This document shows positions 6,499 to 53,429 of a DNA stretch of 64,000 nucleotides, piece after piece. The translations under genes were made by a program, and so were the position numbers. The notes beneath the pieces are model-generated. The model had not been told where the DNA came from. It was given only the letters and a program-made list of their open reading frames with translations, and did no database searches. Source of the stretch: Candidatus Ozemobacteraceae bacterium. GTDB taxonomy: Bacteria; Muiribacteriota; Ozemobacteria; Ozemobacterales; Ozemobacteraceae. Where the stretch lies: the NCBI GenBank assembly GCA_035373905.1, contig DAOSOK010000002.1, positions 131,038 to 195,037 on the forward strand. The letters are read 5' to 3'. How positions within the stretch are numbered: position 1 is the first letter of the stretch; each line of letters opens with the position of its first letter.

Positions 6499-7365
6499 AT
6501 GATGAGAGCCGATGAATGGATACGCCACTGGAATCTGTTTGCGGGAATGCGTTTTCCCGACGGCAGCTTCCCCTATGCGCCAGGATTGCGTTCGGCGGTC
6601 GAACCCACCATTCATGCCGTTCTTGCAGGACTGGCCGGGGGCGTGGATCCCCGGGAACTTGCCCCTTCCATCGCATGGCTTTCCGGAAGACGGAACCAGG
6701 ACGGTTCCGTTCCCTGTTCCCCTGAATTCCCGGATCAGGGTCTTTGGGTCACCGCTCCTTGGGTCGTTGCCATGGCGAAAGCTGGAGATACCCGTTCTGT
6801 CTCCGCCGCTGTCGAGTTCCTGCTTTCCTTCGTCTCCATCACGGTGCAGAACACCAGCACGAACGATCTCGACGGCTCGCTGACGGGCTGGCCCTGGGGA
6901 AAAGGTGCGTTTTCCTGGGTAGAGCCGACCGCCTGGAGCCTGCTCGCACTCGAAGCGGCGGGAAAGAGTGACCATCCCAGGGTTGAAGAAGGACGAAAAC
7001 TGTTGCTGGACAGGCAGATTCCGGCCGGGGGATGGAACTACGGCAACAAGACCGTCTACGGACAGGAACTGATCCCGTTCGCCGATACGACGGCCTTGGC
7101 CCTTCTGGCCCTCTGCGAGAGGGTTCCCGAGGCTTCCATTGAACGTTCGATACGATTCCTCGAAACGGATGCTGCAACTCAGGAGTCTCCCTATGGCCTG
7201 GCGCTGACGGGGCTCGCTCTGCGACGTTGCCGAAGACCGAACGGCGATGCCGTGTTGAAACGCCTGGAAGGCTGTGTGTCGATGATGGCGGGTGAGCGGC
7301 TGAATACGGTGCATCTCGGTCTGGCCCTTCAGGCTCTGGGGTCACGGGGAGTCCTCTGGGAATGA
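6499..7365 (+). CDS. prenyltransferase / squalene-oxidase-repeat (terpenoid-cyclase-like alpha/alpha toroid) protein
   Basis: Repeats with GGWNYG, TAWSLLALEAAG and ALALLAL motifs. About 288 aa. Confidence 0.55.
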   Translation: MMRADEWIRHWNLFAGMRFPDGSFPYAPGLRSAVEPTIHAVLAGLAGGVDPRELAPSIAWLSGRRNQDGSVPCSPEFPDQGLWVTAPWVVAMAKAGDTRSVSAAVEFLLSFVSITVQNTSTNDLDGSLTGWPWGKGAFSWVEPTAWSLLALEAAGKSDHPRVEEGRKLLLDRQIPAGGWNYGNKTVYGQELIPFADTTALALLALCERVPEASIERSIRFLETDAATQESPYGLALTGLALRRCRRPNGDAVLKRLEGCVSMMAGERLNTVHLGLALQALGSRGVLWE

Positions 7366-8327
7366 ATCGAAGACAGTTTTTGAAATGGTCCCTTGCCGCC
7401 GTCGGGGCTGCGGGCCTTGGGGCCCTCATCGGCCGTTATTGGCACAGACGGTGCCGTGTATGGGTGCTCCCCGGACAGGATTACCAACGTGATCTTTCCC
7501 GTGATGTTGCTGGAGTGCTGGCACAGGAAGAACTCGCTCTGAAAGGGAAAAAGGTTCTCATAAAGCCCAACTTCGTTGAATGTCACCCGGGAAGGCCTAT
7601 CAATACCGATGCAAGACTCATCGCCCAGGTTGCCGACGCCTGCTTCCGGCTGGGCGCTTTATCCGTAGCGGTGGCGGAAGGTCCCGGCCACAGGCGGGAC
7701 CCTTGGTATTCGATCTATCATTCGACATTGCGTGAGGCATTACCATCCCAAGTGAGGTGTATTGACCTCAATCATGGCGATCTCGTGAAAGTGCCAAATA
7801 AAGGGTGGTACACCAAACTCCAGCATTTTTACATCACGACCCCGCTTGCCGAAGCGGATCTCGTCATCAGTATGCCCAAGATGAAGACTCATCACTGGAT
7901 GGGCGTGACGCTTTCCATGAAAAACCTGTTCGGGAACCTGCCCGGCATCGTCTATGGCTGGCCAAAAAACCTCCTGCACGTGCAGGGCGTTGCCAGGTCG
8001 ATCGTGGACCTCACTCTCACGATGCCGCCCGCATTCGTTGTTGTGGACGGTATTACCGGCATGGAAGGGGACGGCCCGATCATGGGAACGGCGAAGCCGA
8101 TGGGAGTTGTGGTGATGGGGAGGGACCCCCTGGCCGTCGATGCAACCTGCGCCCGCATGATGGGCTTCGAGCCTGGAAATATCCCATACATGGCGCTTGC
8201 CATGCCGCATATCCCTGGAATGCTGGACGAGATGAACGATTATCCGGCCGAGCATCCCCGCAGATTCGCTTCGACCTTTGCCTGTGTGGATGCGTTCAGA
8301 TCGTGGCAGACTGGCCCGTTCTGGTAA
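7362..8327 (+). CDS. DUF362-family protein with a twin-arginine signal
   Basis: MNRRQFLKWSLAAVGAAGLGA is a Tat motif. DUF362-like core: KPNFV...ISMPKMKTHHWMGVTLSMKNLFG. Overlaps the upstream gene stop by 4 nt. Confidence 0.6.
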   Translation: MNRRQFLKWSLAAVGAAGLGALIGRYWHRRCRVWVLPGQDYQRDLSRDVAGVLAQEELALKGKKVLIKPNFVECHPGRPINTDARLIAQVADACFRLGALSVAVAEGPGHRRDPWYSIYHSTLREALPSQVRCIDLNHGDLVKVPNKGWYTKLQHFYITTPLAEADLVISMPKMKTHHWMGVTLSMKNLFGNLPGIVYGWPKNLLHVQGVARSIVDLTLTMPPAFVVVDGITGMEGDGPIMGTAKPMGVVVMGRDPLAVDATCARMMGFEPGNIPYMALAMPHIPGMLDEMNDYPAEHPRRFASTFACVDAFRSWQTGPFW

Positions 8328-8364
8328 GAAAATCCGGGGAAATCAAAACGGAAGTAAAACAAAA

Positions 8365-8388: not shown

Positions 8389-8412
8389 GATGCGGTCTAA
8401 CGACCTGATGTG

Positions 8413-8718: not shown

Positions 8719-8754
8719 AAAAAAAAACCTCGTGCAGCGAACATCTGCACGAGG
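8719..8754 (-). terminator. intrinsic terminator between the two flp copies
   Basis: A-run, then CCTCGTGCAG-cgaacat-CTGCACGAGG. On the minus strand this is a 10 bp hairpin followed by U9. Confidence 0.8.
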
Positions 8755-8771
8755 TCTGTTGACCTCAAACG

Positions 8772-8955: not shown

Positions 8956-9283
8956 CCTCCTGAAAAGATTTTGGATCTGTCCTGCTTGAAGATAGCGCAA
9001 TCCGCATGCCAAACTTCGACGCTGCATATTGCCCCTCTCAGACGGAAGTATATCACACATCGTCGTCAAAAATGCAACTCCTATTTTCAAATTGAAAAGC
9101 CGCTGGGCAAGCCATTTCACGAGAGATCTTCATGAAACTTTAGAATTGCTTATTTTCTCATTGGTACAGAACAGTGAATTCGCACAAATAATTCTTTTCC
9201 CATGGGAGGGGGGCAGAAGTTGACCATATCCTGCGCGAGGCTTATTTACCTCGAACCACGAAGAATTTCCGCAGCGGCGTACA

Positions 9284-11272
9284 TCACTCCGGCCGTTCGG
9301 TGCGCTGGATGCCCCACTGGTCGCCGGTGCTCGGGAACGCCTGCTGAAGGCGGTAGTCATACGTGTCGCCCGTAAAGTCCCTGACGAAGAGAGGCGACGA
9401 GGCGAGGCTTCCCGATGCCGACGCGCAACCGATGTACTCTTTTCCGGCCGGGAATCCGTAAACGCTGTTCGGTCCGAAAACCGGCGGCGTGGTCTGGCCT
9501 CCGAGATTCTCGATTCCCTTGAAACCCTGGCCCGTGAAACTCGTGCCCGCGACGAGAATGTTTTTTCGGATCGTCGGAACGCCGTTGACGACCTGGATGC
9601 CGTACGCCGCGTCGAAGGTGTTGTAATCAACGATCGGCGGTTGATCGGAAATTCTCAGCCCCAGCCCCGTCTTCGCCACGAACAGGTTGTTCGTGACGCT
9701 GATGGAGCCGGCCGTGTCGGCGCAGGAGAGCCCGACCCCGGAAAGATCGAAGAAGTTGTTGCCGGAGTAGGTCGAGGCGTCGTTCCCGCTCGCATCGATT
9801 CCGGTGACGCCGTGAGAAAAGGTACTGTTTGTTATCGAAAGCCGGGTGTTGCCTGTGGCCTTCACGCCGTCCGGCGTGTACAGAACCCTCGAGGCGTTGA
9901 GAGCTAGATCGGTGCAGGAGAGAATCCGGGCGCCCACGGAACAATGGTCCAGAATTAATCTCTGGAAATGCCCCGCCGCTTTTTCGAGTTTCAGTCCTGT
10001 GGCTGCATACGCGATCGTGACGCCGCAGAGGGACGTCGTGGCGTCTGGCGAGTCGGAAATGGTTATTCCGCCCCAGTCTCCTGCAGACGGCGTCGGCCGC
10101 TCTGACGTGAAAATGATGGGCTGTTCGGAACTCGTGCTGGCAATCAGAACGCCGCCGGTGACGAGAAGCTCGACTTTCCCCGTGTCGTTTGTTCGCAGCA
10201 CGTCGGAATCAGAGATTTTCACGACGACGCCGGGGTCGATCTTCAGCGTTCCCATATCGGTCACTGTAATATCACCCGGGACGACGAAGGGGCTGTTGGC
10301 CAGAGTCCAGGTCACGGTGCCCGTGATTTCGCCGGGAACCAGCATCGACACGATCTCGGACGGCCCGCTTTCGTTCCCCGCCTGGTCGACGGCCGACACT
10401 CGGTAATAGTATTTCATGCCGGTTCTGACCGTCGTGTCCGTATACCGTTCCTGGCCTTTCGCAATGAGCGTGTCGGAAACCATCGCGTAGCCGCTCGATG
10501 GAAGTTCCGAGCGGTAGATCCGGTATCCCTTCAGGTCGTTCTCGGTGTTTGGCGCCCAGAAGACGACAACTTGGTTCGGAGTTCCGTCAACGGCGATCGA
10601 TGTTCCCGACGGCGGGGCAGGCACGGTCGAGTCATCCAGCGGAGCAAGCGTAGAGAAAGAGCCGCTCGATGACGTCTCTGATTCTCGTCCCTGCCGGGAT
10701 GCCACGATTCGGAAGAAATACAGCTGATTGGGCTTGAGGCCCGTGATCGTCACGCTGTGGGTCGTCGCATACTGGCCGGAGGGCTCGTTGACGTAACTTC
10801 CGTAACTGTCGGTGGTGCCGTATTCGACGAGGCCGTTCGTGTAATCGGTCGTCTTCCAGGTGATCACCGCATGCGTGGAGGAATAATCAGCGACCGTGAT
10901 GTCCTGGTAATCGAACGAGGAGGTCTCCATGGTGACGTTCGTGATCACGGAAACGGCATTCGAATAGATGGCGGCCCTGAACGTCTTCGGGCGGTAGCCG
11001 GATCTCGTCGCGACGAACTCCTGCTCGCCGAAACCGATGCCGGCGACGTGAAACACGCCGTCGGCGCCGCTCCGTCCCCAGCGGGTGGGATCATACGTCC
11101 AGCTCACGAGCACGTCTTTCAGGGCGGTGCCGCTTTTCGAATACACGGTTCCCTGAAGCTCGCCTTCGCGCGGCGTGACGCTGTTGTCCGCCTCGCATCC
11201 GATGAGCGCCGCGAGCGCGCCGAGACAGACAAGAACCGCTGCCAGGGCGTTGGTGCGTATGAATGAGCGCAT
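9284..11272 (-). CDS. surface lipoprotein: carboxypeptidase-regulatory-like domain + 2 FN3-like domains + right-handed beta-helix repeats
   Basis: Signal peptide + lipobox LIGC. Ig-like GTVYSKSGTALKDVLVSW. FN3-like segments (KGYRIYRS...YYYRVSAVDQAGNES). Beta-helix repeats (NNLFVAKTGLGLRISD). Confidence 0.6.
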   Translation of the reverse strand: MRSFIRTNALAAVLVCLGALAALIGCEADNSVTPREGELQGTVYSKSGTALKDVLVSWTYDPTRWGRSGADGVFHVAGIGFGEQEFVATRSGYRPKTFRAAIYSNAVSVITNVTMETSSFDYQDITVADYSSTHAVITWKTTDYTNGLVEYGTTDSYGSYVNEPSGQYATTHSVTITGLKPNQLYFFRIVASRQGRESETSSSGSFSTLAPLDDSTVPAPPSGTSIAVDGTPNQVVVFWAPNTENDLKGYRIYRSELPSSGYAMVSDTLIAKGQERYTDTTVRTGMKYYYRVSAVDQAGNESGPSEIVSMLVPGEITGTVTWTLANSPFVVPGDITVTDMGTLKIDPGVVVKISDSDVLRTNDTGKVELLVTGGVLIASTSSEQPIIFTSERPTPSAGDWGGITISDSPDATTSLCGVTIAYAATGLKLEKAAGHFQRLILDHCSVGARILSCTDLALNASRVLYTPDGVKATGNTRLSITNSTFSHGVTGIDASGNDASTYSGNNFFDLSGVGLSCADTAGSISVTNNLFVAKTGLGLRISDQPPIVDYNTFDAAYGIQVVNGVPTIRKNILVAGTSFTGQGFKGIENLGGQTTPPVFGPNSVYGFPAGKEYIGCASASGSLASSPLFVRDFTGDTYDYRLQQAFPSTGDQWGIQRTERPE

Positions 11273-22554: not shown

Positions 22555-23397
22555 ATGAGAGAACCTGCGGTGAGCGGTCGCTTTTATCCCGACGAGCCGA
22601 CCGAGCTGTATCAGATGATCAGACAGTGTTACGAGCACAGGCTCGGCGTTCGTGACCGCCATCACGCCCAGGCCGGGAGGCTGGCAGGCATGATCGTGCC
22701 GCATGCCGGGTATGTGTTCAGCGGCCCGGTCGCGAGTTGGTCGTTCCTGCGGCTCGGCGATGAGAAGCCTGCCCCGAAGCGGCTCCTGATGCTCGGACCG
22801 AAGCACACGCCATACGGCGCCACGGCGGCTCTGAGCGCCGAAGACGCCTGGATGACACCGCTTGGAAGCATCGAAACCGACGAAATGCTGCGAGCCGCTC
22901 TCGAGCAAACGGGCGTTTTCACGAGGGACGACTCGGCCCACGCCTTCGAACACTCGATCGAGGTCCAGATCCCCTTTGTCCAGCAGATGATGCACGTGTC
23001 ACTGCCGAAAATCGTTCCGCTTGCTCTCGGCTTCGCCGATTATCCGCAATGTGAACGGTGGGGAAAGGCGATCGCCGATGTGCTCGCGAAACCCGAGTTC
23101 GCCGACACGGTTTGCGTCGTCAGTTCCGATTTCTCTCACGAAACCCCCCGAGACGAAGCCTACCGGATCGATGGCGAGGCGCTCGACGTCATCCTGTCGC
23201 TTGACGCGAAGGCCTTTCACGAACTTGTCGTGGGGGAAGACCGAAGCATCTGCGGCGTCATTCCCATCACTGCGTTCCTCGCCTCGCTGACGGGGAAAAG
23301 CGTTCGCGCGACGAAGCTGGCCTACGCCACCTCCATGGATGTCATGGCTCACCCCCGGGGCGTCGGATACGCTTCCGTCATATTCGAACACATATAA
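22555..23397 (+). CDS. Memo-like protein (AmmeMemoRadiSam system protein B family)
   Basis: SGRFYP, VPHAGYVFSGPVAS and EHSIEVQIPFVQ motifs. Confidence 0.8.
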   Translation: MREPAVSGRFYPDEPTELYQMIRQCYEHRLGVRDRHHAQAGRLAGMIVPHAGYVFSGPVASWSFLRLGDEKPAPKRLLMLGPKHTPYGATAALSAEDAWMTPLGSIETDEMLRAALEQTGVFTRDDSAHAFEHSIEVQIPFVQQMMHVSLPKIVPLALGFADYPQCERWGKAIADVLAKPEFADTVCVVSSDFSHETPRDEAYRIDGEALDVILSLDAKAFHELVVGEDRSICGVIPITAFLASLTGKSVRATKLAYATSMDVMAHPRGVGYASVIFEHI

Positions 23398-23649: not shown

Positions 23650-24957
23650 TCAGAAGTCGAAACTGCCGTACACGCCCAGCATGCGTTCGCGGGTGAAATC
23701 ACGGAGAGTGTTGCCGAACTCGGCATGAAGCCGGCCGGTGTCGAACCGGTAACTGGCGTGCAGGGTCATTCCCAATCCGCTTTCGCGGCGAGTTTCCGGT
23801 GACGTGTCGCGCCAGGAATTCGAGATGAGGCGGGTGTCGAACCCCCACCACCAGTTCGAGCCGACGGCCCGCTCCCAGCCCGCAACCAGTTCGGCGCCGC
23901 GAAAATCTCGGGGCGCCCAGTAGGGATACGCCGCACCGTCCGCGGCGAGCTGATTCTCGAAACTCGCCTGGGAAAGCTTGAGCTGGAGCGACAGGAATGG
24001 GATACCGCGGCGCTTGATGTAGTGCAGAATCTCGGTGTCGAACCTGCGCCTGGCGTTGCCGTCCGAGATGTCGCCCGTGGTGAACGACTGCTGGATGCGC
24101 GTCTGCTCGTGCAGGTCTCCGAAGACCGTCAGCGTCGCGTAGTCCTCGGAAAGCAGCCTGCGCGCCGTCTCGAGATTTTCCTTGTACGAGCCGTGGCCCG
24201 CGAAGGCGGCGAGATTGAGCTGCCCGTTCCCCGTCACGCCCTGGAACGAATACCCGTTGACCGTGTCTACATCGGAAAACCGCTCGGGGGCGAACGTCGC
24301 GGCGACGCGGGTGCGATGATCGAGGCTGTATTCGAAGGTTCCCGACAGGATGCGGCTGTCGGTCGTCTCGTCGAGGTTGCGGTCTTCGTAGGCCCAGGTT
24401 TCGAGCCTGTACCGGGCCGACAGTTTTGGATACGTGAAAGAGGGAAAATACGCCTCGAGGCTCGAGACGAACTCGGTCTGACCGGCATTGTCCTCGTGAA
24501 GCCTGACGCCGATCTCCGCGACCGAGTTGAGGCGGGAACGGACCCGTTCCAGGTTCTCACGGAGCTTGTCGCTGAGGGGATACAGGAGCGTCAGCCGGTC
24601 GTAGATCGCTTTCGTGTCGCTGAATCGACCCTGGCGCAGGAAGACGGCCGCGAGACCTTCGTTCGCCCGCATGTTGTCGGGCTGGATCTCGAGCGCCTGC
24701 TCGAAGAAGCGCTGGGCCTCTTCCAGCCGGCCCTGCTCGAGCCGGAGGTTTCCGATCTCGACCAGGGCGTCGAATTTGTGCGGGCGCTGCGTCAGACGTT
24801 CGAGCTGGATGTCGCGCTCGATGCTCTGAATGCGCCGGAGTTCCGTGCTCAGCGAGTCTCCTGTCTGTTCGTCCGGAACCATCAGATCGAACGGCTGGGC
24901 GAGGGCGGGGTTCGGAGATGCGAGACATAGCGCGACAGCCAGGAATAGAAAGAACAT
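23650..24957 (-). CDS. outer-membrane protein: N-terminal TPR + C-terminal beta-barrel
   Basis: Signal peptide MFFLFLAVALCLASPNPALAQP, TPR units, C-terminal ...YGSFDF aromatic terminus. Confidence 0.6.
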   Translation of the reverse strand: MFFLFLAVALCLASPNPALAQPFDLMVPDEQTGDSLSTELRRIQSIERDIQLERLTQRPHKFDALVEIGNLRLEQGRLEEAQRFFEQALEIQPDNMRANEGLAAVFLRQGRFSDTKAIYDRLTLLYPLSDKLRENLERVRSRLNSVAEIGVRLHEDNAGQTEFVSSLEAYFPSFTYPKLSARYRLETWAYEDRNLDETTDSRILSGTFEYSLDHRTRVAATFAPERFSDVDTVNGYSFQGVTGNGQLNLAAFAGHGSYKENLETARRLLSEDYATLTVFGDLHEQTRIQQSFTTGDISDGNARRRFDTEILHYIKRRGIPFLSLQLKLSQASFENQLAADGAAYPYWAPRDFRGAELVAGWERAVGSNWWWGFDTRLISNSWRDTSPETRRESGLGMTLHASYRFDTGRLHAEFGNTLRDFTRERMLGVYGSFDF

Positions 24958-25112
24958 CCTGGAGAAAAGCCGGAATTCCTGTGCAAACCTGAGCTGGCGA
25001 CACATCAACACCCTGTATCGGCAGGAGGCGGGGAGTTCGTTATTTCCTTCGGATGGCGTGCAAAAGAAAACCGCTCCCCGAAGGGGGAGCGGTCGGTCAG
25101 GCGCGGTTCGGA

Positions 25113-43786: not shown

Positions 43787-44149
43787 TCAGGATTTTTTCG
43801 AGGAAGACGACCGTTTTGACGGCTTCGGCTTCGCCGGCCGCTCGGGGCGCAGCGCGGAAATTTCACCGCGGATCTCGCTGAACTGATCCTCCAGGTCGAG
43901 AAGTTTGGCTTCGATCCGCTGGAGATAGCACAACATGCGGTCGAGTTCGGACTTGGAAGGCATGTTGATCGAGGTCAGATACGACTCGATCTGGGTGCCG
44001 AGGTGCTTGCGGACGTCAAGGGACTGGGACATGACCTGGCTCATGGATTTGAGGAACTGCTCGTCCTTCGTCAGGCGCTCGAAGGTTTCGGTCATGGATT
44101 TTTCCCAGAGTTCCATCATGTTGCGGCCGAAATCAAACGGGTTCGTCAC
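43787..44149 (-). CDS. PhaE-like PHA-synthase partner subunit (copy 2)
   Basis: (V)TNPFDFGRNMMELWEKSM...LKSMSQVMSQSLDVRKHLGTQIESYL. GTG start with a GAGGAG RBS. Confidence 0.55.
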   Translation of the reverse strand: MTNPFDFGRNMMELWEKSMTETFERLTKDEQFLKSMSQVMSQSLDVRKHLGTQIESYLTSINMPSKSELDRMLCYLQRIEAKLLDLEDQFSEIRGEISALRPERPAKPKPSKRSSSSKKS

Positions 44150-44165
44150 GGGGTTCGTCTCCTCT

Positions 44166-45278
44166 TCACGGATTGGAAGGCTTGTTGCGGGACAGCCACT
44201 CCATCGTATCTTTCCAGACGGTTTCGCGGATGGGGTGGGCGACGGTCAGGGTGAAATGGGTGGCTTCGTACTTCCGGTTCGTCACTTTCGAGTTGGTGAG
44301 GATGCCGGGATTCCGTTCGGCGCACTCCACCGAGACGACATGGTCATTCGTCGCATACAGGTTCAGCGTCGGGAACGTGATCTTCCGCAGGTCGACGGTT
44401 TTCCCGTCGATGCGCATGGCGTTCTGCGAGAGCAGGTTCTCCTGGTAGCAGTCGCGGATGATCTCGACGAACGTCTGGCCCGGGAACGGGACGTTGTCGG
44501 TCGCCCATCGGTCGAGGGCCTTGAAATTCTTCAAGTATGTATCATCCAATATATTTTCAAACAGGATGCGCGGCTTCGCGAACGTCGATCTTGCCTGCAG
44601 GTAGGGGAACGGGGCGTGCAGGATCTTTTCCGGCACACAGCCGAATGCGTCGGCGAGCTTCTTCGGATCGAACGAGTCCTTATTGGTCCAGAGCGTGAGA
44701 AGGCCGCCCTCGGTGAACTCGAGCGGCGTAGCGAGAAGAACCAGGTTTGCGTACTCGTCGGGATGCAGGGCGGCCATCATTGCCGCGCAGGTGCCGCCCA
44801 GGCAATATCCGAAAAGGGTGAGTTTCTTTCCGCCTTCGGCGCGGCGGACGCGGCGGACGGCGCGGAGGGCGACCCTCTCGAGGTAGTAGGCGAGGCCGTG
44901 CTGGGCGTTTTCCGGTCCGGGGATGCCCCAGTCGAGGAGGTAGACCTTGTATCCGGCCTTCGACAGGGCCTCGATGAAGCTGTGTCCCGGCTGGAGATCG
45001 AGAATATACCAGCGGTTGATGAAAGAGTACACCATGAAGATCGGCGGCGCGTCGAGGGGCTTGCCGAGAACCTCGTATTCGAACAGCCGGCAGGTGCCTT
45101 CGGTGTAGACCGTACGGCAGGGCGTCTGGGCCATGCCGAGGGCGGCGAGTTGCTGGTCGCTGGCCCGGTTGCCGACGGCGGCGGCGTGCTGAAGATACTC
45201 GACGAATTTCCGCGCCCGCGCAAGGTCCTCCTGAAGACGGGGGTCCTGGACGGGGGCTGCTCCCTGCTGTTTGCTCAT
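44166..45278 (-). CDS. phaC: class III-type PHA synthase catalytic subunit (second copy)
   Basis: Lipase box GYCLGG. VYLLDWG. GGAGGAG RBS. Confidence 0.85.
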   Translation of the reverse strand: MSKQQGAAPVQDPRLQEDLARARKFVEYLQHAAAVGNRASDQQLAALGMAQTPCRTVYTEGTCRLFEYEVLGKPLDAPPIFMVYSFINRWYILDLQPGHSFIEALSKAGYKVYLLDWGIPGPENAQHGLAYYLERVALRAVRRVRRAEGGKKLTLFGYCLGGTCAAMMAALHPDEYANLVLLATPLEFTEGGLLTLWTNKDSFDPKKLADAFGCVPEKILHAPFPYLQARSTFAKPRILFENILDDTYLKNFKALDRWATDNVPFPGQTFVEIIRDCYQENLLSQNAMRIDGKTVDLRKITFPTLNLYATNDHVVSVECAERNPGILTNSKVTNRKYEATHFTLTVAHPIRETVWKDTMEWLSRNKPSNP

Positions 45279-45466
45279 GATAACGAAGCTCCTCCCTGGG
45301 ATAGGCGGATCTGATATCCGGTGTGTGTCGGCCGATACCGGCCGGGAAAGTATAGGGGGCTCCCTCCGAGGGTGTCAAATCGGGAATGGCCGTGGTTGCA
45401 ACGCCGGGAATGAAAAGCCGCCGGAACTGCCTGGGCAGACCGGCGGCCGTGGAGACGAGCGGGGGA

Positions 45467-45757
45467 TTATTCGGCAGCCTTGGCCTTGGGGGCGGTCTGT
45501 TCGATCACCTGGCGCCAGACGTTCTCGAAGTGGTGCATGACGACGCGGGTGTTCTTCTGGTAGTCCTCATACGCCTTGTTGACCATCTCGATCTGCTTCT
45601 TGGCGGTTTCGTTGTAGGCTTCGCGCTGCATGTCGGCGATCTTGGTGACGTTCTCGGTGAGGGTCGTGTAGAACTTGAGGGAGTTCTCGAGACCTTCGCG
45701 GGAAAGGCGGATCATCTCGTCGCGGTCGAACAGGGGGGTGTTGGTGGTCGGGGTCAT
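45467..45757 (-). CDS. phasin-like small protein (paralog 1)
   Basis: Internal start MTPTTNTPLFDRDEMIRLSREGLENSLKFYTTLTEN... with an AGGAG RBS. Confidence 0.55.
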   Translation of the reverse strand: MTPTTNTPLFDRDEMIRLSREGLENSLKFYTTLTENVTKIADMQREAYNETAKKQIEMVNKAYEDYQKNTRVVMHHFENVWRQVIEQTAPKAKAAE

Positions 45758-45828
45758 TGGTATTCTCCTTGATATTGTATTCAAAATAGAGAAGGCGTTT
45801 CGAATCGCCGTCTGTGTGAAACCGAACG

Positions 45829-46107
45829 TTACAGGGCGGCCTGGGGCTGGGACTGGAACTGGTCCGCGAGCTTCCGCCACTCTCTCTCGAAGCCACTCGT
45901 GATCGTGCGGCTGCTCTTCTGATACTCCTCGAAGGACTTGTTGACGAGGTCGATTTGACGGCGGGAAGCTTCGTTCATCGTGTCCTTCTGGATCTCGCCG
46001 AGTTTCAGGGCGTTCTCGGTCAGCGTCATGTAGAATCTCAGGGAGTTTTCCATCCCCTGTCTCGAGAGCCGGAGCACTTCGTCGCGGTCGAACAACGGGT
46101 TTGTCAT
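45829..46107 (-). CDS. phasin-like small protein (paralog 2)
   Basis: MTNPLFDRDEVLRLSRQGMENSLRFYMTLTEN... Clear paralog of 45467..45757. Confidence 0.55.
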   Translation of the reverse strand: MTNPLFDRDEVLRLSRQGMENSLRFYMTLTENALKLGEIQKDTMNEASRRQIDLVNKSFEEYQKSSRTITSGFEREWRKLADQFQSQPQAAL

Positions 46108-46143
46108 TGGTCGGATCCTTTCGTGTCTTGTGTCTGCGGGTGG

Positions 46144-46428
46144 TCATCGGTCGGTCCCGGTCTGGGCTTGGCGGTCGATGGCGCGGTTGAAGAGCGATTC
46201 GCAGTGATTCCGGAGAATCCTGGCCGCCTTCAGCGACTCGTCGATGACTAGGTTGGAAATCTCGGCCTGGCGGCGATGGACTTCATTCACGGTCTCGACC
46301 TGCATCGAGGCGACCTTCTCGACGTTGTGCGAAAACTGGACGGCCAGACGCATCGAGGCGTCGAACAGGTGCGTGGAGAGATCGGCGAGATCCGTGAGCG
46401 GGGTCATGGTGCTGCGGAAGGCGTTCAT
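46144..46428 (-). CDS. small helical protein, possible third phasin-like gene
   Basis: Internal start MNAFRSTMTPLTDLADLSTHLFDASMRL... 'cat' at 46426-46428. Confidence 0.4.
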   Translation of the reverse strand: MNAFRSTMTPLTDLADLSTHLFDASMRLAVQFSHNVEKVASMQVETVNEVHRRQAEISNLVIDESLKAARILRNHCESLFNRAIDRQAQTGTDR

Positions 46429-46525
46429 GGTTTTGTTCTCCTGAAATTGTGCGGTGCAATTTCGTGCTTGTGTTGAATTGGTCTTACAGAAGCAAATATA
46501 GCATCGGTAAGAAATTGTGTCAAGC

Positions 46526-46549
46526 AAAATAATTTTGCAATGCAAAATA
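46526..46549. promoter_or_regulatory. candidate operator AAATAATTTTGCA-a-TGCAAAAT (copy 2, a perfect 8+1+8 inverted repeat) upstream of the phasin genes
   Basis: ATTTTGCA a TGCAAAAT, found in an AT-rich promoter island. Confidence 0.5.
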
Positions 46550-46726
46550 TTTTTTCTGCCGCTCGTTCGCGGAGGTGCCAAGACGCGCCCGGAGCGACTC
46601 GTCGTCGGGGCGTCCGGGGTGAGCCGAAGAGGGCGAGGCACCCGTGGGAAATGTGTGGTCCGGGATGCGAGGGAAAAGAAACAGCCCGGGAGCTTCCGGG
46701 CTGTTTCTGAATGAAGCGGGAGGCCG

Positions 46727-47368
46727 CTACCTCTTGCGGCGGCGGACGGTCCCCGGTTTCTCGGCGTGCTTCAGGGCTTCGACCTCGCGGCGGAGTCGCT
46801 GGAGTTCCTCGCGAAGCGAATCATCCGCATGCGGGGCGGGCTGGGCGGGGGACTGAACCGGCTGGGCCGCCTGGCCGTGGGTGGGCTGCTGAGGCGGCGT
46901 TTGCGGTTGGGGAGCCTGTGGTTGAGGCTGCGGCTGCGGAGAAGCGCCGAAAAAACTTCCGAATGGCGACATGGTCGGAAAACTTCCGGGAAGCCAGGGA
47001 TTCATCATCATCCCGGACATCAGGCGCCGCTGCTGGTCGAGATATCCCTGGAACGCCTGGGGAAGACCGTTGTAGAGGAAGTCGCGGACGACGTTGTCCT
47101 GCGCGCGGATCATCAGCGTGACGAGGTCGAGCGGGAGATAGTCGGGGCGGGATTTCAGCGTTTCCACGAGAACCTGCCCCATGGTGACCTGCGTGAGGTC
47201 TTCGCCGGTCTTGTGATCGAGGATCCGAATCCGCTCGCCGGCCTTGATGCGATCGGCGATCTCGCCGAGCGTGACATGGGTGTTTCGCGTCGCATCATAG
47301 ATGCGGCGGTTCGGATACTTGCGGAGAATGGTTTCGCCCTGGCCTTCGCCGTGCTGTTTCTGTGTCAT
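46727..47368 (-). CDS. phaR: PHA synthesis repressor PhaR
   Basis: ILRKYPNRRIYDATRNTHVTLGEI (PhaR N-terminal DNA-binding signature), C-terminal Q/P-rich tail. GGAGG RBS. Confidence 0.8.
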   Translation of the reverse strand: MTQKQHGEGQGETILRKYPNRRIYDATRNTHVTLGEIADRIKAGERIRILDHKTGEDLTQVTMGQVLVETLKSRPDYLPLDLVTLMIRAQDNVVRDFLYNGLPQAFQGYLDQQRRLMSGMMMNPWLPGSFPTMSPFGSFFGASPQPQPQPQAPQPQTPPQQPTHGQAAQPVQSPAQPAPHADDSLREELQRLRREVEALKHAEKPGTVRRRKR

Positions 47369-47487: not shown

Positions 47488-48702
47488 TCACTCCCAGCGG
47501 CCGGGAATGGCGGTTCCGCAAAAAGCGCAGGCGCCGTTCCTGATATGCATTTCCCCGATCGAATACCCGAACCGCTCGACGACGCGCTTTTTGCAGCCCG
47601 GGCAGAAGGTGCTCTCTCCCTCGTGGCCGGGGATGTTTCCCAGGTAGACATACCGAAGGCCGGCCTGCATCGCCAGTTCCCGCAGTCGTTCGAGGGTGTC
47701 GGGCGGCGTCGGCGGAAGGCTGCGAAGACGGTAGGTGGGCATGAACCGTGAGAGGAACAGGCTGATGTCTGGGCCGGCGTGTTCCACGAGCCATCGGAAC
47801 ATGGCCGAGCAGGTCACGGGATCGTCGTTCAGCGTCGGAACGACGAGCGTGACGATATCGACGAGGGTCTTGCTCCCGGCCAATCGTTCGATCGTCGAAA
47901 GAACCGGCGCGAGAGTCCCTCCGCAGACGGAGCGGTAGAAACGTTCCGTGAACCCCTTGAGGTCGACTTTCATGACGTCGAGCCAGGGAAGGAGCTCCCT
48001 GAGAGGCTCGGGGTTGATATAGCCGCAGGAAATCATGATGTTCGCGAGGCCGGCCGCGCGGGCCGCTTTCGACGTGTCGAGCATGTACTCGTAGAAGATC
48101 GTCGGCTCGGTGTACGTGTAGGCGATGCTCCTGCACTTGTTGGCAAGCGCTTCCGCGACGACCCGCCCGGGAGGGAGATCGTAAAACTCGCACTCTTCCG
48201 GCCCGATCTGCGAGATCTGCCAGTTCTGGCAGTAGCGGCAGCCGAAGAGGCACCCGGCCGTCGCGATCGAGAAGGCTGTGCTGCCGGGCAGGAAATGAAA
48301 GACCGGCTTTTTTTCGATCGGATCGATCGCCGCCGAGCAGGGGCGGCCGTACACGAGAGTGCCGAGACGGTTTTCCAGGCTGATGCGCGCCCTGCAGAGA
48401 CCTCGTTCGAACGGCTTCAGCGTGCAGAAACGGGGGCAGAGTTCGCAGCGGATCAGTCCGTTCGCGGTGCGCGACCAGTACATCGCATCACGCGGGGAGA
48501 AGCCGGCCGCTTCGAGGGCGCGCAGGTTCGCCTCGGCGGCGGCGCGGTCGTAGGTATGCCGGCCCGCCGGCCCTTCGGGCTGGGCCCGTTCCGGGGAAAC
48601 GGCTTTCAGTCCGCTCCCGGCACGGCCGTCGAGGAGAAGTCCGCCGAGGCTGATTCCTGCCGCCGCGGTGCAGACGTCGATGAGAAACCGGCGCCTGTTC
48701 AT
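47488..48702 (-). CDS. radical SAM enzyme of the AmmeMemoRadiSam/PflA-like type with an N-terminal twin-arginine signal
   Basis: Internal start MNRRRFLIDVCTAAAGISLGG (Tat motif). CELCPRFC cluster and CLFGCRYCQNW (CxxxCxxC). ATGA overlap with the upstream gene. Alternative Met at about 48483. Confidence 0.7.
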   Translation of the reverse strand: MNRRRFLIDVCTAAAGISLGGLLLDGRAGSGLKAVSPERAQPEGPAGRHTYDRAAAEANLRALEAAGFSPRDAMYWSRTANGLIRCELCPRFCTLKPFERGLCRARISLENRLGTLVYGRPCSAAIDPIEKKPVFHFLPGSTAFSIATAGCLFGCRYCQNWQISQIGPEECEFYDLPPGRVVAEALANKCRSIAYTYTEPTIFYEYMLDTSKAARAAGLANIMISCGYINPEPLRELLPWLDVMKVDLKGFTERFYRSVCGGTLAPVLSTIERLAGSKTLVDIVTLVVPTLNDDPVTCSAMFRWLVEHAGPDISLFLSRFMPTYRLRSLPPTPPDTLERLRELAMQAGLRYVYLGNIPGHEGESTFCPGCKKRVVERFGYSIGEMHIRNGACAFCGTAIPGRWE

Positions 48703-49892
48703 GAGTCGCCGCCCGGACCGGGTTTCTCGGCTGGCCGGAGACGGGCCAGGCTCGTTTTGAACGTCTCGATGTCGGCAAACAGCGGGTTCAGAGGGCACAG
48801 TTTCCGGCAATAGAAGCGGGGAACCAGCGCCGCGCCTGCGAGAACCGAAACGGCGAGAAGCGTTCCCCACGCGCCGAGATTCCGGAAGAAGAGGGCCGAA
48901 AAGACTTCCGCCCGCTCCAGGGGGAGGTCTTCCGTCATCGGATACAGCAGGAGAACCGTCCAGAGGAGGGCACGACCAGGTCCGGGGCTGCATGAGCCGG
49001 GAGAAGCCGCGGGCGAGATCGAGTGAATGACGTCCTGGAGGCGGCCGCAGGGGCAGAGAAACCGGCAGTAGCCGCGCCTTGAGAGAAAGACGGCCGTCGC
49101 CGCGAGTGCCAGAATCAGGCCCGCCTGGAAGGACGCCGAACCGCCCGTCAGGAAGCGGAGATGCGAAAGGGAGACGAATGTCGGGGAAAGGAGACCGAGG
49201 GAAAAAACGACGAAGGTCGCCGCAAGGGCGTTTCCGATGAATCGCTGAAAACATGCCGCGAGGACGGCGATGAAGACGGCAACCAAGCTGGTCCGAACGC
49301 CTTTCCTGGAAGGAAGCGCGGACGCGGGTTCTCTCGGAAGGGGCCGACCGGAGGAGGCGTTCGCGACGGCAAACCCCTGACGAAGGGCCTGACACAGGGC
49401 TTCGACCGAGACGGTGGCGTGCGTCAGACCTTCGATGTCCTCACCCGGAACAAGGGGGTCATGGGCCGTTTTTCCGGCGAACTGTCCGAGAAACCAGTCT
49501 GAATCGATGCCGGCGACGAACGTCGGCGTTTCAGTATGCGAGAGGAGGCGCACGCCGGTGATGCGGCCTGCATCGTCGAAGCCGGCGACGAGATCGACGG
49601 GGCCAGCATAGCCTGCCGGGCGTGGAGCGAGAAACGCGCTGAAAACGGCGTGCCAGCGAACGGTTCCCGAGGCGTCGATCCCTTCAAGACGGCAAGGTCC
49701 GTGAGAAGCGGGGCGCAGAGAGAGACCGGACGGGCCGATGGACCGGGCGGCAGCTTCCCATGCCGCCGGAATGTCCCCGGCGGGACCGGGGCGATCTGAC
49801 GGCGTTCTCGTCGTACGGGCGCCGTGGAGCCAGACGAGAGCCAGCAGGAGAACCGTCACTCCGGCAAAGACGTGATGTGTCTTCGCTCTCAA
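48699..49892 (-). CDS. NosR/NapH-like membrane protein: FMN-binding domain + TM helices + two CxxLCPxG/N ferredoxin-like motifs
   Basis: N-terminal TM. FMN_bind-like region (...IEGLTHATVSVEAL). GYCRFLCPCG and FYCRKLCPLNP motifs. Confidence 0.6.
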   Translation of the reverse strand: MRAKTHHVFAGVTVLLLALVWLHGARTTRTPSDRPGPAGDIPAAWEAAARSIGPSGLSLRPASHGPCRLEGIDASGTVRWHAVFSAFLAPRPAGYAGPVDLVAGFDDAGRITGVRLLSHTETPTFVAGIDSDWFLGQFAGKTAHDPLVPGEDIEGLTHATVSVEALCQALRQGFAVANASSGRPLPREPASALPSRKGVRTSLVAVFIAVLAACFQRFIGNALAATFVVFSLGLLSPTFVSLSHLRFLTGGSASFQAGLILALAATAVFLSRRGYCRFLCPCGRLQDVIHSISPAASPGSCSPGPGRALLWTVLLLYPMTEDLPLERAEVFSALFFRNLGAWGTLLAVSVLAGAALVPRFYCRKLCPLNPLFADIETFKTSLARLRPAEKPGPGGDS

Positions 49893-49926: not shown

Positions 49927-52173
49927 GTGAAACGGCTCCATGATACCTGTTTTCAAAGCGAACCTGAAATGAATTTTCCCGCCCTATCCGATATCTTCCG
50001 TCTTCTTCTCGACAATCTCACCAGCGCCGAATACGAGTTGCGCAAGGCGGCCCTCACGGCGGTGAGCAGATTGCGGGGGGAAACCGCCGCCGAGATTCTG
50101 TTCGAGCGCTTCAAAAGCGACAATCTCGATGATTACCTGACCTTCGCGCTCAGCAGAATGAGCGCCGACAAGGCGGCAAAACTCTTGCTTCAGGCTCTCC
50201 ACGATACGCACGTCGAGACCAGGCTCGCCGCGGCCGACGCCCTGTCGCGGCTGAATGCCGACGAAGCGGTCCAGGTGCTCAGCGATGCGGTCGAGCAGTA
50301 TCTCGCGGGGTCGGGCGGCGGTGCGGACGCCGTTCTGCTGAGCGAGGAAGCCATTTCCGGCGCCGTCCGGGCGCTCGGGAGACTCGGCACGCCCGTCTGC
50401 ATGGCGTTGATGCGCAAGCTTCTTATGAAGGAAACGAATCCGCGTATCCGTGCAACGATTCTCGCGGCCATCGTTCCGCGAATGACCGACTCGTTGCTGA
50501 CCCTTGTCGCGGGGTTTCTCAAAGACGAAGACCCCCGCGTCCGGGCGAATGCCGTCGAGGCCCTCCAGGCGCTGAAGAATCCATCCATCATCGCCGTTCT
50601 TCAGCCGTATCTCTACGATCCGCACCAGCGCGTGCGCGCGAACGCCATCAAGGCCGTCTGGCAATACGGTGACTTCGAGGTTTCCGCCACGCTCAAGGAA
50701 ATGCTGGCCGACAAGGACAAGCGGCAGCGCGTGTCGGCTCTCTACGCCATCGGGGAAATCAGGCTCGCCGGCTTTCAGAAGCATGTCCTGGCGGCGCTCA
50801 GAGACCAGGACGCGGACATCCGACGAAATGCCCTCATTGCGATTCGGAAAATCTCCGTCGGAGCACAGGCCCCGATTCTCGCGACGCTGAAAGACAGCGT
50901 GCTTCCCCTGCTGGAGGACCAGGAGCCGGCGGTCAGACTCCAGGCCGTCACTGCGCTGGAAGCGACGATGGGCGGCGAAGCCTTCATGCCCCTGGTCAAG
51001 CGGCTTCTCATGGAAAAAGCCGCCGGGGTTCTCGCGCAGATCATCGATACGATCGGCCGGTTCAGAAAGCCCGAGACTCTCTCGATCATCGATTCCTATC
51101 TCGACAACTCCGAAGCGCAGGTTGCCATCGCCGCACTGAACGCCATCGGCGGAATAGAGCCAGAAATGGTGACGTCCGTCGTCCTCAAGTCGATCAGGCG
51201 AAGTATGAAGCATCCTGAAATCCGGGTTCGCAGGAAAACCGTCGAGACCCTGTGGAAACTTGGCGCCTTCGACGTCCTCAACGAGTTGTGCGTCGGGTTG
51301 CGTCACGAGCGCCAGGATATTCGGAAGATGTTTCTCCAGTGTTTCGGGGAGGTGTGCGCCGAAGTATCGCGATCAGGAGGCGAGCTTCTCACGACTTTCG
51401 AGCGTGAGTTGAAAGCGGCTATCGCCGAACATCAGAAAAGGCTCGAACAGAGTAAATCTTCTGCGGCCCAGGCAGATGCCCAGAACCTTTGGAACCTCGC
51501 GGCCGGGCACATCCGCTCCGGAAGGAACACCGAGGCGGCGGACGCTCTCGAACGCCTGCTGAAGATGGCCCCGAGGCATGTTCAGGCTTGGATGGCTCTT
51601 GGCGATTTGGCCCATCGTGGGGACGACCATGTGCGGGCCATCGACTGTTTCCGTTCGGCCTTGGCCCTGGAGCCCAACTTGCCGAAAGCCCTGTATGCCC
51701 TCGGTCAGATCCACCACGCAAGGGGGGAATGGAAGCAGGCGGCCGAGGCGCTTCATGCGACGATCCGGTTGTATCCGAAGCTGCCGCAGGCGTATCTACT
51801 GCTGGCCGAGGCTCTCGAAGAGCTTCAGCGGCCCCAGGACGCCTACAAGGCCCTGCTTCGCCTGGCGGACCTCGTGCCGGACAACCCCGCCGCCCTCCAA
51901 CGACTGGCGCGGGCGGCGTTTTTCGTCGGGGATTCGACGAAAGCCGTTGCTGCCGCGAAAAAGGCGGCCGAACACGGGCAGATCGACCTGGCCTGCCATT
52001 TTATTATATCGTATGGTATGGCATTCGAGGGGAACGGCGGGGCCGCCTATCGCGACCTGGTGCTTCTCGTCTCGAAAATCCTCGCACACCCCTCGGGGAA
52101 GGGGACCGCGGAACTGTTGAAGCTGTGCCAGTGTGCCGCGAAGCTGTTTGCCATGCGTTCGGAAAATGCCTGA
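49927..52173 (+). CDS. HEAT-repeat (PBS-lyase-like) + C-terminal TPR protein
   Basis: Repeated ...RVRANAVEALQAL.../...VRLQAVTALEA... units. TPR-like C-terminus. GTG at 49927 or ATG at 49969. Confidence 0.6.
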   Translation: MKRLHDTCFQSEPEMNFPALSDIFRLLLDNLTSAEYELRKAALTAVSRLRGETAAEILFERFKSDNLDDYLTFALSRMSADKAAKLLLQALHDTHVETRLAAADALSRLNADEAVQVLSDAVEQYLAGSGGGADAVLLSEEAISGAVRALGRLGTPVCMALMRKLLMKETNPRIRATILAAIVPRMTDSLLTLVAGFLKDEDPRVRANAVEALQALKNPSIIAVLQPYLYDPHQRVRANAIKAVWQYGDFEVSATLKEMLADKDKRQRVSALYAIGEIRLAGFQKHVLAALRDQDADIRRNALIAIRKISVGAQAPILATLKDSVLPLLEDQEPAVRLQAVTALEATMGGEAFMPLVKRLLMEKAAGVLAQIIDTIGRFRKPETLSIIDSYLDNSEAQVAIAALNAIGGIEPEMVTSVVLKSIRRSMKHPEIRVRRKTVETLWKLGAFDVLNELCVGLRHERQDIRKMFLQCFGEVCAEVSRSGGELLTTFERELKAAIAEHQKRLEQSKSSAAQADAQNLWNLAAGHIRSGRNTEAADALERLLKMAPRHVQAWMALGDLAHRGDDHVRAIDCFRSALALEPNLPKALYALGQIHHARGEWKQAAEALHATIRLYPKLPQAYLLLAEALEELQRPQDAYKALLRLADLVPDNPAALQRLARAAFFVGDSTKAVAAAKKAAEHGQIDLACHFIISYGMAFEGNGGAAYRDLVLLVSKILAHPSGKGTAELLKLCQCAAKLFAMRSENA

Positions 52174-52241: not shown

Positions 52242-53429
52242 ATGCCCCGGGCTTACATGCGGATTCACCGTGGAATCACCATCCTGCTCGTTCTCCTTGC
52301 GGCTCTTCTGATCCGCCCGGCCCTGGCGAGCAGGGAGTGTCCGGCGTGCGGAAAGTCGTTCGACGACGGGGTGAACTTCTGCCCGTTCGACGGGGGAAAA
52401 CTCGAGCAGAGCCCTCGGGGCGAGCGGGGAACCCTCATCGTGCGCGTGACGCCGCCGGAAGCGACGATGCTGATCGACGGTCTTCCCCGCGGCACGGGGC
52501 CGGAACTCCGGTTCGAGATTCCCGCCGGAGAGCACCGCCTCGAGGCGGCAGCTCCCGGTTTCGCCTCCCAGAAGCTCAGCTTCAGCGTCGCATCCGGCCA
52601 GGAACAGCGACTGACGCTGGAACTCGCCCCTGTCACCCAGATGCCCGCTTCGACGCCGGCCGCGGCCCCCGCGAACGGCCGCCCCAGGGGGGAAATGGTC
52701 GAGGTCAAGGGCGGTGTCTACATGCTTGGCAACGAGCGCGGCAACCCGGACGAACGGCCTCTGCGGAAGATCAAGAGCCCGGGGTTCTGGATCGACAAAT
52801 ACGAAGTGACCTGCGCCGAATACCTCCGCTTCATCGATGCGATCAAACGTGAAGGACACAAGTGGTGCCATCCTTCCGAGCCCATGCAGAAAGATCATAT
52901 ACCATACCATACATATACCTGGGCGCTGCGGTTCAGCTGGCTCGGGGGGCGACCCCCGGCCGGAATGGAGGAGTGCCCGGTCGTCCTCGTCGACTGGTAC
53001 GACGCCTGGGCGTATGCGAAGTGGGCCGGCAAACGACTCCCGACCGAAGACGAGTGGGAGATCGCGGCGGGCGGCGGTGACGGCCGCGAATACCCGTGGG
53101 GGAGCAGTTTTCGCGTCGAAAACGTGAATATAGGCGGGTATCCGGTGAAGGTGGGGAGCTTCCCGGACGGCGCCTCGCCGTGGGGGGCCCTCGACATGGC
53201 TGGCAACGTGGCCGAGTGGACGGTGACCGCCTACGAACCCGACGCCCGCGACGGCCGCGATTTCAACGGCCATTTCGGCCAGCCGATCATCCGCGGCGGC
53301 TCGTGGGACGATGAATCGAAAGGGTGCCGGGTCAGCGCCCGCGACGTGCATCGGACGCCCTTCTACCGCAGCACCACCGTCGGGTTCCGGTGCGTGCGCG
53401 ATACGCCGCCTCCAGATGCGAAACCCTGA
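52242..53429 (+). CDS. FGE-sulfatase (SUMF1)-domain protein with an N-terminal zinc ribbon + PEGA-like domain
   Basis: CPACGKSFDDGVNFCPFDG. PEGA-like (TLIVRVTPPEATMLIDG). C-terminal FGE core (WDAWAYAKWAGKRLPTEDEWE...GGSW...GFRC). GGAGGG RBS. Confidence 0.7.
   Translation: MPRAYMRIHRGITILLVLLAALLIRPALASRECPACGKSFDDGVNFCPFDGGKLEQSPRGERGTLIVRVTPPEATMLIDGLPRGTGPELRFEIPAGEHRLEAAAPGFASQKLSFSVASGQEQRLTLELAPVTQMPASTPAAAPANGRPRGEMVEVKGGVYMLGNERGNPDERPLRKIKSPGFWIDKYEVTCAEYLRFIDAIKREGHKWCHPSEPMQKDHIPYHTYTWALRFSWLGGRPPAGMEECPVVLVDWYDAWAYAKWAGKRLPTEDEWEIAAGGGDGREYPWGSSFRVENVNIGGYPVKVGSFPDGASPWGALDMAGNVAEWTVTAYEPDARDGRDFNGHFGQPIIRGGSWDDESKGCRVSARDVHRTPFYRSTTVGFRCVRDTPPPDAKP

Follow-up and report, generated by a model that had tools for sequence, protein, structure and literature searches.

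In a 64-kb stretch of DNA from a Candidatus Ozemobacteraceae bacterium (hereafter the window), we identified a gene pair that joins a radical S-adenosylmethionine (SAM) enzyme of the AmmeMemoRadiSam family to a membrane protein of the flavinylated electron-transfer type. The membrane gene (48699..49892, minus strand) is an open reading frame of 397 amino acids (aa) with PF04205 and PF12801 matches and encodes a flavin mononucleotide (FMN)-binding, NapH-like (PceC/NosR-type) polytopic protein, and the enzyme gene (47488..48702, minus strand; 404 aa) matches TIGR04337 and PF04055. The enzyme opens with a twin-arginine (RR) N-terminus resembling a twin-arginine translocation (Tat) signal; this N-terminus and the membrane electron-transfer partner together suggest an enzyme working at the outer face of the membrane. 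Our best explanation, to which we give about even credence, is that the enzyme is loaded with its clusters, targeted by the Tat pathway and active at the outer face of the membrane, where the external FMN of its partner reduces it. Enzymes of the radical SAM class are regarded as strictly cytoplasmic on account of their need for SAM, for a low-potential reductant and for iron-sulfur (Fe-S) clusters assembled in the cytoplasm.

Two overlapping genes conserved as a pair

The membrane gene and the enzyme gene share an ATGA overlap at 48699..48702 (minus strand), read directly in the sequence, in which the ATG of the enzyme occupies 48702-48700 and the TGA of the membrane gene 48701-48699. As this overlap indicates, the two genes are translationally coupled, and they form a predicted two-gene operon with the membrane protein as its first product. 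The membrane gene starts at a TTG codon with GAGGA about 5 nt upstream. The open reading frames, motif positions and overlap listed in an original prediction made for this DNA from its letters were all present. A 635-aa open reading frame in frame with the enzyme (GTG at 49395) was rejected as an overlap artefact of a GC-rich genome, because the orthologs begin exactly at MNRR. An Rfam scan of 46-51 kb returned no riboswitch or other RNA, and a promoter and terminator scan gave nothing informative for the pair, the sole promoter-like site belonging to the downstream phaR. Identical proteins are present in a Candidatus Ozemobacteraceae (Riflebacteria) metagenome-assembled genome (MAG) and in anaerobic-digester metagenomes.

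The pair recurred with a stop/start overlap of 4 or 8 bp in three related loci (L085, L086 and L087; enzyme identity 66%, 60% and 55%, respectively); in a fourth (L088; 58%), whose genomic context is unrelated, the two genes are 159 bp apart. A metagenome scan from the membrane protein recovered six full-length relatives, five of which were followed directly by a radical SAM gene, while the sixth contig ended too early. The co-occurrence that had been anticipated was thus found, mostly with overlapping genes, in L085-L088 and L091-L095; the pairing was not universal, and the exceptions (L089, L090 and L109) are weighed below.

A Tat-like N-terminus inherited by large clades

The enzyme carries a 73-aa N-terminal extension beginning with MNRRRFL (aa 1-21, MNRRRFLIDVCTAAAGISLGG). 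We defined a Tat pattern as RR followed by a hydrophobic residue pair and then an uncharged, moderately hydrophobic (h-) region of 13 residues or more, the whole lying near the N-terminus. The enzyme showed RRRFL at aa 3-7, followed by the uncharged 15-aa stretch VCTAAAGISLGGLLL with a hydropathy of 1.93. The Tat-like signal or signal anchor as a whole covers aa 1-28 (48619..48702, minus strand) and consists of MN-RRRFL, the h-region FLIDVCTAAAGISLGGLLL and DGRA, with a start conserved in orthologs P0002-P0023. Orthologs at 55-89% identity all begin with MNRRxFLxDxCT...G. On this alignment, the upstream start and the RR extension are judged genuine (conservation in relatives speaks against chance for both the RR N-terminus and the gene pair), and the alternative start at Met74 (48483), which the original prediction had named as a possible refutation, is set aside.

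Among 119 full-length top homologs from many phyla, 39 had RR and then an uncharged h-region of mean hydropathy 1.85, 8 had KR or RK, and 16 had a more hydrophobic, Sec- or anchor-like N-terminus (2.82); the extension lacked a clear h-region in 14 and was absent in 42. A genome scan gave 71 classifiable radical SAM genes, with RR or KR in 43, a hydrophobic segment only in 13, and no signal or an unclear N-terminus in 15. Mapped onto a neighbour-joining tree built from 189 core domains, the two states (signal present or absent) required 5 changes, compared with 42.7 on average (minimum 38) when the labels were shuffled on the same tree. This difference indicates that the signal is passed down within large clades.

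In homologs from Chloroflexi and Acidobacteria, an insert with one CxxCH, often accompanied by extra Cys or His residues, lies between the RR signal and the radical SAM core (P0050, P0055, P0060, P0072, P0073 and P0083; L012, L028, L055 and L068). This insert may hold a c-type heme or an additional metal. Attachment of c-type heme to Tat substrates is unusual, and, a metal site being possible, we did not rely on CxxCH as proof of a periplasmic location.

A DUF362 protein elsewhere in the window (7362..8324, plus strand) has a strong Tat signal (PF10518 TAT_signal, 28.7 bits; cutoff 22.7), which makes a Tat pathway in the host very probable. The DUF362 family, with RR N-termini, also stands directly upstream of signal-bearing radical SAM genes in 8 other loci (e.g., L064, 6656-7723), unlike the window, where the DUF362 gene is 40 kb from the enzyme.

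A complete radical SAM core

The enzyme scored 349.5 bits against TIGR04337 (cutoff 220; E=1.7e-104), with aa 74-404 aligned to profile positions 2-334 of 349, and this profile search bears out its earlier placement in the AmmeMemoRadiSam family. It contains the motifs CLFGCRYCQNW (aa 151-161) and CELCPRFC (aa 86-93). The radical SAM cluster motif, C151-x3-C155-x2-C158 followed by QNW (48229..48252, minus strand), lies inside the PF04055 match. An N-terminal Cys motif, C86-x2-C89-x3-C93...C103 (48394..48447, minus strand), marks a probable auxiliary Fe-S site, with cluster binding by these four residues probable, and two C-terminal Cys pairs, C367-x2-C370 ... C392-x2-C395 (47518..47604, minus strand), are Zn-ribbon-like or may hold a further cluster. 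All 11 of these cysteines (C86/89/93/103, C151/155/158 and C367/370/392/395) were invariant across 115 homologs (41 signal-less and 74 extended), as were the QNW and TYxEP motifs. Because the cluster-binding and SAM-binding residues are all kept, the extended forms are complete enzymes of the radical SAM type, presumably still able to bind SAM and several metal clusters.

An AlphaFold (AF2) model of the enzyme built from 18 sequences (predicted local distance difference test [pLDDT] 86; predicted template modelling score 0.81) showed a helix at aa 3-24, a disordered linker at aa 24-48 and a packed core from about aa 50. The closest solved fold was pyruvate formate-lyase activating enzyme (PFL-AE; Foldseek E=3e-14, template modelling score 0.79 on the target, 17-19% identity), which was also the closest sequence in the Protein Data Bank (PDB; E=1.7e-5), with none nearer.

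These data bear on the reading that the locus is an annotation artefact, with the true start at Met74, the RR stretch untranslated and the adjacency meaningless, or that the enzyme is simply a pyruvate formate-lyase activase. The TIGR04337 profile does begin at aa 74, JGI labels homologs "pyruvate formate lyase activating enzyme", and PFL-AE is the nearest solved structure. However, the N-terminal 73 aa are conserved as protein with the same start in orthologs, the helix at aa 50-73 was modelled with a pLDDT above 90 and packs against the core, and the gene overlap is conserved in L085-L087. Activase identity was rejected on a TIGR02493 score of 42.4 bits against a cutoff of 231.75, and the enzyme was likewise far under the cutoffs of the other glycyl-radical activase families. 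We regard this reading as having almost no chance of being correct.

A predicted conduit from the membrane to an external FMN

The membrane protein carries an FMN_bind domain at aa 94-172 (49377..49613, minus strand; PF04205, 41.8 bits, cutoff 22), whose closest solved sequence is RnfG (7zc6_G; E=2.8e-9), and a Fer4_5 match at aa 261-291 (PF12801, 26.5 bits, cutoff 22). The operational definition of NapH-like systems in Meheust et al. 2021 (PMC8238504) asks for PF12801 in a membrane protein and for FMN_bind either in that protein or elsewhere in its cluster; here, both domains occur within the single 397-aa protein. The NapH/NosR-like character proposed earlier, with transmembrane (TM) helices and two Cys motifs, was therefore upheld by domain scores above cutoff and by two CX3CP motifs. 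Membership of the curated families was rejected, the scores being below cutoff for NapH (TIGR02163, 28.5 against 213 bits), NosR (NF046105, 25.4 against 1000 bits) and RnfG (TIGR01947, 47.8 against 102 bits). NCBI names the identical protein from Ca. Ozemobacteraceae "FMN-binding protein". A word-indexed homolog search found 16 close relatives, and an exhaustive profile search returned a much larger family, without genomic context.

Within the FMN_bind domain, a flavinylation-type motif, DIEGLTHAT (D152...T157-x-A159-T160; 49413..49439, minus strand; alignment A2), follows the ApbE-type pattern Dxx(S/T)GA(T/S), but H replaces G. D152, G155, T157, A159 and T160 were invariant in 9 family members, which have H, R or Q at the canonical G position, whereas fused relatives have the canonical SGAT or TGAT motif. 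T160 is probably flavinylated by ApbE.

The first CX3CP motif, CRFLCP (aa 276-281, C276/C280/P281; 49050..49067, minus strand), follows the TM helix at 252-270 and has a flanking RR, and the second, CRKLCP (aa 362-367, C362/C366/P367; 48792..48809, minus strand), follows that at 339-357; both were invariant in the 9 members. Hydropathy segments were found at aa 7-25, 202-220, 222-240, 252-270 and 339-357, with a weak one seen by eye near 305-320. The first of these (49818..49874, minus strand) is a Sec-type signal or signal anchor with a hydropathy of 1.85 over 19 aa and K/R on its N side, and AF2 placed a low-confidence helix at aa 5-28. Such a segment would put the FMN_bind domain on the outer side. 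Under the positive-inside rule, the predicted topology has the FMN domain outside, both CX3CP motifs on the cytoplasmic side and about five further TM helices. The same arrangement has been proposed for NapH, NosR and PceC.

Signal-bearing AmmeMemoRadiSam systems in other phyla

In AmmeMemoRadiSam, the radical SAM gene is normally one of three, the others encoding AMMECR1 (protein A) and Memo (protein B). The window enzyme has neither beside it. As the original prediction had noted, no AMMECR1 was found within the 64-kb window, and the Memo-like gene (22555..23397, plus strand; TIGR04336, 243 bits; no signal peptide) is 24 kb away in a different gene context.

Neighbour clustering of the 80 best genome loci revealed several recurrent neighbours. 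A fused Memo and AMMECR1 protein (TIGR04336 + TIGR04335) was present in 37 loci, a membrane-protein cluster in 44, a DsbD_2-type two-Cys membrane protein in several, and a Tat-signal DUF362 protein in 8. The membrane-protein cluster comprised a polytopic protein of about 700 aa with a spermidine-synthase domain, together with DsbD_2-like proteins and FMN_bind/NapH-like fusions. Fusions of DsbD_2, FMN_bind and Fer4_5 lay directly beside the radical SAM gene in UBP3, Auribacterota and Chlamydiae MAGs, and a fusion of Spermine_synth, MFS, FMN_bind and Fer4_5 did so in a Pirellulales MAG (L060, 7182-11126, 1315 aa). A polytopic membrane neighbour accompanied 41 of 56 signal-bearing radical SAM loci, compared with 3 of 15 signal-less or unclear ones.

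The spermidine/spermine-synthase-domain membrane protein of about 700 aa (e.g., L053, 5783-7906) was the commonest neighbour of signal-bearing TIGR04337 genes. One possibility is that it handles SAM or decarboxylated SAM at the membrane.

Memo-AMMECR1 fusions beside TIGR04337 genes begin with Sec- or lipoprotein-type signals in many loci (L047, 3849-5390; L006, L008, L023, L028, L034, L053, L055, L057, L059, L062-L066, L076 and L077). Of the fusions beside signal-bearing radical SAM genes nearly all do so, whereas the Memo proteins of the signal-less loci L061, L075 and L078 are signal-less too. Signal peptides thus co-vary, by sequence, between the radical SAM enzyme and Memo-AMMECR1 in other lineages, and the Sec- and lipoprotein-type signals would imply that, in many phyla, the AmmeMemoRadiSam system as a whole has an extracytoplasmic form. 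Because the same module recurs beside the enzyme, with signal-bearing partners, in other phyla, we regard the window pair as a stripped-down variant: it looks like a minimal version of an AmmeMemoRadiSam system that is widespread, apparently located in the envelope and linked to modules for transmembrane electron transfer.

Cellular location of the enzyme

The mechanism that we favour would run in three steps. The enzyme would receive its Fe-S clusters in the cytoplasm; the Tat pathway would target it to the outer face of the cytoplasmic membrane, where it would be released or held by an uncleaved signal anchor; and the partner would relay electrons from a cytoplasmic or quinol pool through the CX3CP site to its external FMN, which would in turn reduce the radical SAM cluster. 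The fuller proposal is that the enzyme works outside the cytoplasm, carried there by the Tat pathway together with its clusters and perhaps bound SAM, reduced by a dedicated flavinylated NapH-like conduit, and belonging to a widespread envelope form of AmmeMemoRadiSam that acts on a membrane or envelope substrate rather than on RNA; in this full form we hold it tentatively, judging it possible but leaning towards doubt. Burroughs and colleagues are said to have linked AmmeMemoRadiSam to predictions of RNA or nucleotide-base modification, or of isoprenoid modification.

Several observations weigh against an extracytoplasmic enzyme, beginning with the signal itself. What had been called a textbook Tat signal kept its RR, its h-region with a mean hydropathy of 1.9 and the basic residue after it, but not the rest of that description: the window N-terminus scored 13.6 bits against TIGR01409, under the cutoff of 16.7, and gave no match to PF10518 (cutoff 22.7), and no AxA-type cleavage site was conserved across the orthologs. 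Ortholog P0007 does pass TIGR01409 (19.0 bits), and the Anaerolineae homolog P0055 scored 21.8 bits against PF10518, just under the cutoff. Some homologs bear Sec-like rather than Tat-like N-termini, and Sec export is hard to square with a folded multi-cluster Fe-S protein. Within the annotated parts of the window, apbE, tatA and tatC were not seen, which says little because the window represents 64 kb of a far larger genome.

Further counter-evidence concerns the co-substrate, the partner and the loci. We know of no SAM available outside the cytoplasm, and the enzyme presumably still uses SAM, since all SAM-binding residues are kept. The AF2 model of the membrane protein, from a 9-sequence alignment, had a mean pLDDT of 54.9 with only the FMN_bind domain confident, leaving the topology unsupported by the model. 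In two syntenic Rifleibacteriota loci (L089 and L090) the RR-bearing enzyme occurs without the membrane partner, and one relative of the membrane protein (L109, a 2-kb contig) has no adjacent radical SAM gene and is followed by a convergent, unrelated gene. In L006, L023 and L060, the enzyme has no extension (a stop codon lies just upstream) and is accompanied by a Memo-AMMECR1 protein with a lipoprotein-type signal. The enzyme therefore need not be outside, and an external FMN could serve a different partner; the system can thus straddle the membrane, and this split between compartments suggests a substrate that crosses it.

These points lead to a reading in which the enzyme is membrane-tethered but cytoplasmic. 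The RR N-terminus would be an uncleaved anchor or membrane-association helix, the core would dock on the CX3CP face of the partner, which would supply or receive electrons, and the external FMN would serve another periplasmic donor or acceptor. SAM and Fe-S assembly are, as is well established, cytoplasmic, the two CX3CP motifs are predicted to face the cytoplasm, and the lack of a conserved cleavage site, the sub-threshold score in the window and the Sec-like N-termini of some homologs suit an anchor more than export of a folded Fe-S protein; moreover, the signal-less enzymes of L006, L023 and L060 adjoin the same membrane modules. However, three Arg residues precede the h-region and the flank after it is near neutral, so that the positive-inside rule predicts an N-in/C-out orientation with the catalytic domain outside. 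The h-region hydropathy of the RR forms is typical of Tat signals, with the non-RR forms being the TM-anchor-like ones, the Memo-AMMECR1 partners in the same loci are signal-bearing, and the helix leads into a long disordered linker of the kind seen in tethered exported proteins. Taken together, we consider a cytoplasmic tether the main rival reading, a real possibility but less likely than export.

With no conserved cleavage site, the odds are even between a cleaved signal and an uncleaved Tat signal anchor, so that the N-terminus may well remain as an anchor. The three possible refutations named in the original prediction all turned out favourable to it or neutral; on the last of them, whether the RR stretch is an anchor instead of a Tat signal, the N-terminus kept its Tat-like character.

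Genes surrounding the pair

Immediately downstream of the pair is a cluster of polyhydroxyalkanoate genes (43787..47368, minus strand). It contains a PhaR-like gene (46727..47368, minus strand), three paralogous genes of 92-96 aa (about 45.8-46.4 kb, minus strand) that have no Pfam match and are possibly phasin-like, a class III PhaC gene (44166..45278, minus strand) and a PhaE gene (43787..44149, minus strand), after which a further PhaC-like gene is found.

On the other side, a HEAT/TPR repeat protein gene (49927..52173, plus strand) diverges from the pair. A HEAT/TPR gene of about 730-750 aa keeps this divergent position in L085 (1216-3402) and L087 (1472-3709), and it is gone together with the membrane gene in L089 and L090.

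Beyond it lies a PEGA + FGE-sulfatase-domain gene (52242..53429, plus strand), which bears on a sulfatase-related role in which the radical SAM enzyme would act on or with nearby sulfatase or FGE-type proteins, like the anaerobic sulfatase-maturating radical SAM enzymes (anSME). The FGE-sulfatase-domain gene is less than 3 kb away in the window and also occurs in L085, L089 and L090, and in the Ozemobacteraceae relative L086 an 883-aa PF00884 sulfatase gene (7222-9873) starts 4 bp after the radical SAM stop. Nevertheless, the enzyme belongs to TIGR04337 and not to anSME, the domain searches reported no SPASM domain or anSME family, the FGE-domain neighbour is far below the EgtB, GldK and SenA cutoffs, and the divergent HEAT/TPR gene stands between it and the pair. 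The association is also limited to Riflebacteria synteny and does not appear in the 80 genome loci, whose neighbours are mainly Memo-AMMECR1 and spermidine-synthase-like membrane proteins. We therefore consider a sulfatase-related role highly improbable.

The Memo-like gene of the window (AmmeMemoRadiSam protein B) adjoins a NamZ-like gene and a TPR protein gene (23650..25011, minus strand) and is unlinked to the radical SAM gene. The C-terminus of this TPR protein (...FGNTLRDFTRERMLGVYGSFDF) is resembled by the product of the convergent gene in L109 (1792-2040, minus strand), which ends in ...FADTIRDFYRERTLGFWGSFDL; the likeness may reflect just a shared Riflebacteria gene.

Discussion

Both protein families are already known and named by automated annotation. 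Meheust et al. 2021 (PMC8238504) describe the FMN_bind domains of NapH-like proteins as modules for extracytosolic electron transfer, the reactions that they serve being for the most part unknown. The main text of that study makes no mention of radical SAM partners, and in the portion of its supplementary tables available to us, Radical_SAM entries in NapH-like clusters were just incidental cytosolic enzymes near Dehalococcoides rdh genes. Our literature search found no paper on an exported or Tat-targeted radical SAM enzyme or on a radical SAM partner of a NapH-like flavinylated protein, although Burroughs et al. 2019 (JBC), which we have not read, may already describe membrane contexts. Phrase searches for periplasmic, extracytoplasmic, secreted, exported, extracellular or Tat-dependent radical SAM returned no literature matches.

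The cytoplasmic view of radical SAM enzymes would be challenged by a large, clade-inherited subfamily with export-type N-termini, signal-bearing partners and adjacent transmembrane electron-transfer modules (FMN_bind/NapH-like and DsbD-like). If export is real, the supply of SAM outside the cell becomes a sharp question. Thinking on AMMECR1-Memo-radical SAM function, including by extension that of human AMMECR1 and MEMO1, would also turn towards membrane or envelope substrates, and one "NapH-like" flavinylated system of unknown function would gain a defined partner. The two-gene form in the window would be the simplest version for experimental study.

Compared with AmmeMemoRadiSam enzymes in general, the window enzyme is alike in its TIGR04337 match, all 11 conserved cysteines, QNW and TYxEP, and it differs in its 73-aa RR extension, the lack of adjacent protein A or B and its coupling to an FMN_bind/NapH-like gene. 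The membrane protein shares with the NapH-like flavinylated proteins (PceC/RdhC and NosR; PMC8238504) an N-terminal FMN_bind domain, a PF12801 multi-helix domain and two CX3CP motifs, whereas its partner is a radical SAM enzyme, a kind of partner absent from the main text cited. It also differs in scoring under the NapH, NosR and RnfG cutoffs, in having no C-terminal polyferredoxin domain and in the H, R or Q that stands for the motif G.

The reductive dehalogenase PceA is a Tat-exported Fe-S/corrinoid enzyme with an RR signal, and PceC, which at about 400 aa is similar in size to the window membrane protein, is the membrane partner thought to feed electrons to it at the outer face. The window pair follows the same logic of a cofactor-loaded RR enzyme with a dedicated FMN_bind/CX3CP membrane protein, but its enzyme belongs to another catalytic family, one that depends on SAM, a co-substrate of the cytoplasm, and the pair is known from sequence alone. 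PFL-AE (3c8f/3cb8) is nearest to the window enzyme in both fold and PDB sequence, yet at that low identity the window enzyme has extra Cys-rich elements at its N- and C-terminal sides and a signal-like N-terminus. Finally, Rieske Fe-S proteins are RR-targeted and keep the h-region as an uncleaved Tat membrane anchor. Their fold and function are unrelated to those of the window enzyme, but they illustrate, by analogy, a possible fate for its N-terminus, in which no cleavage site is conserved.

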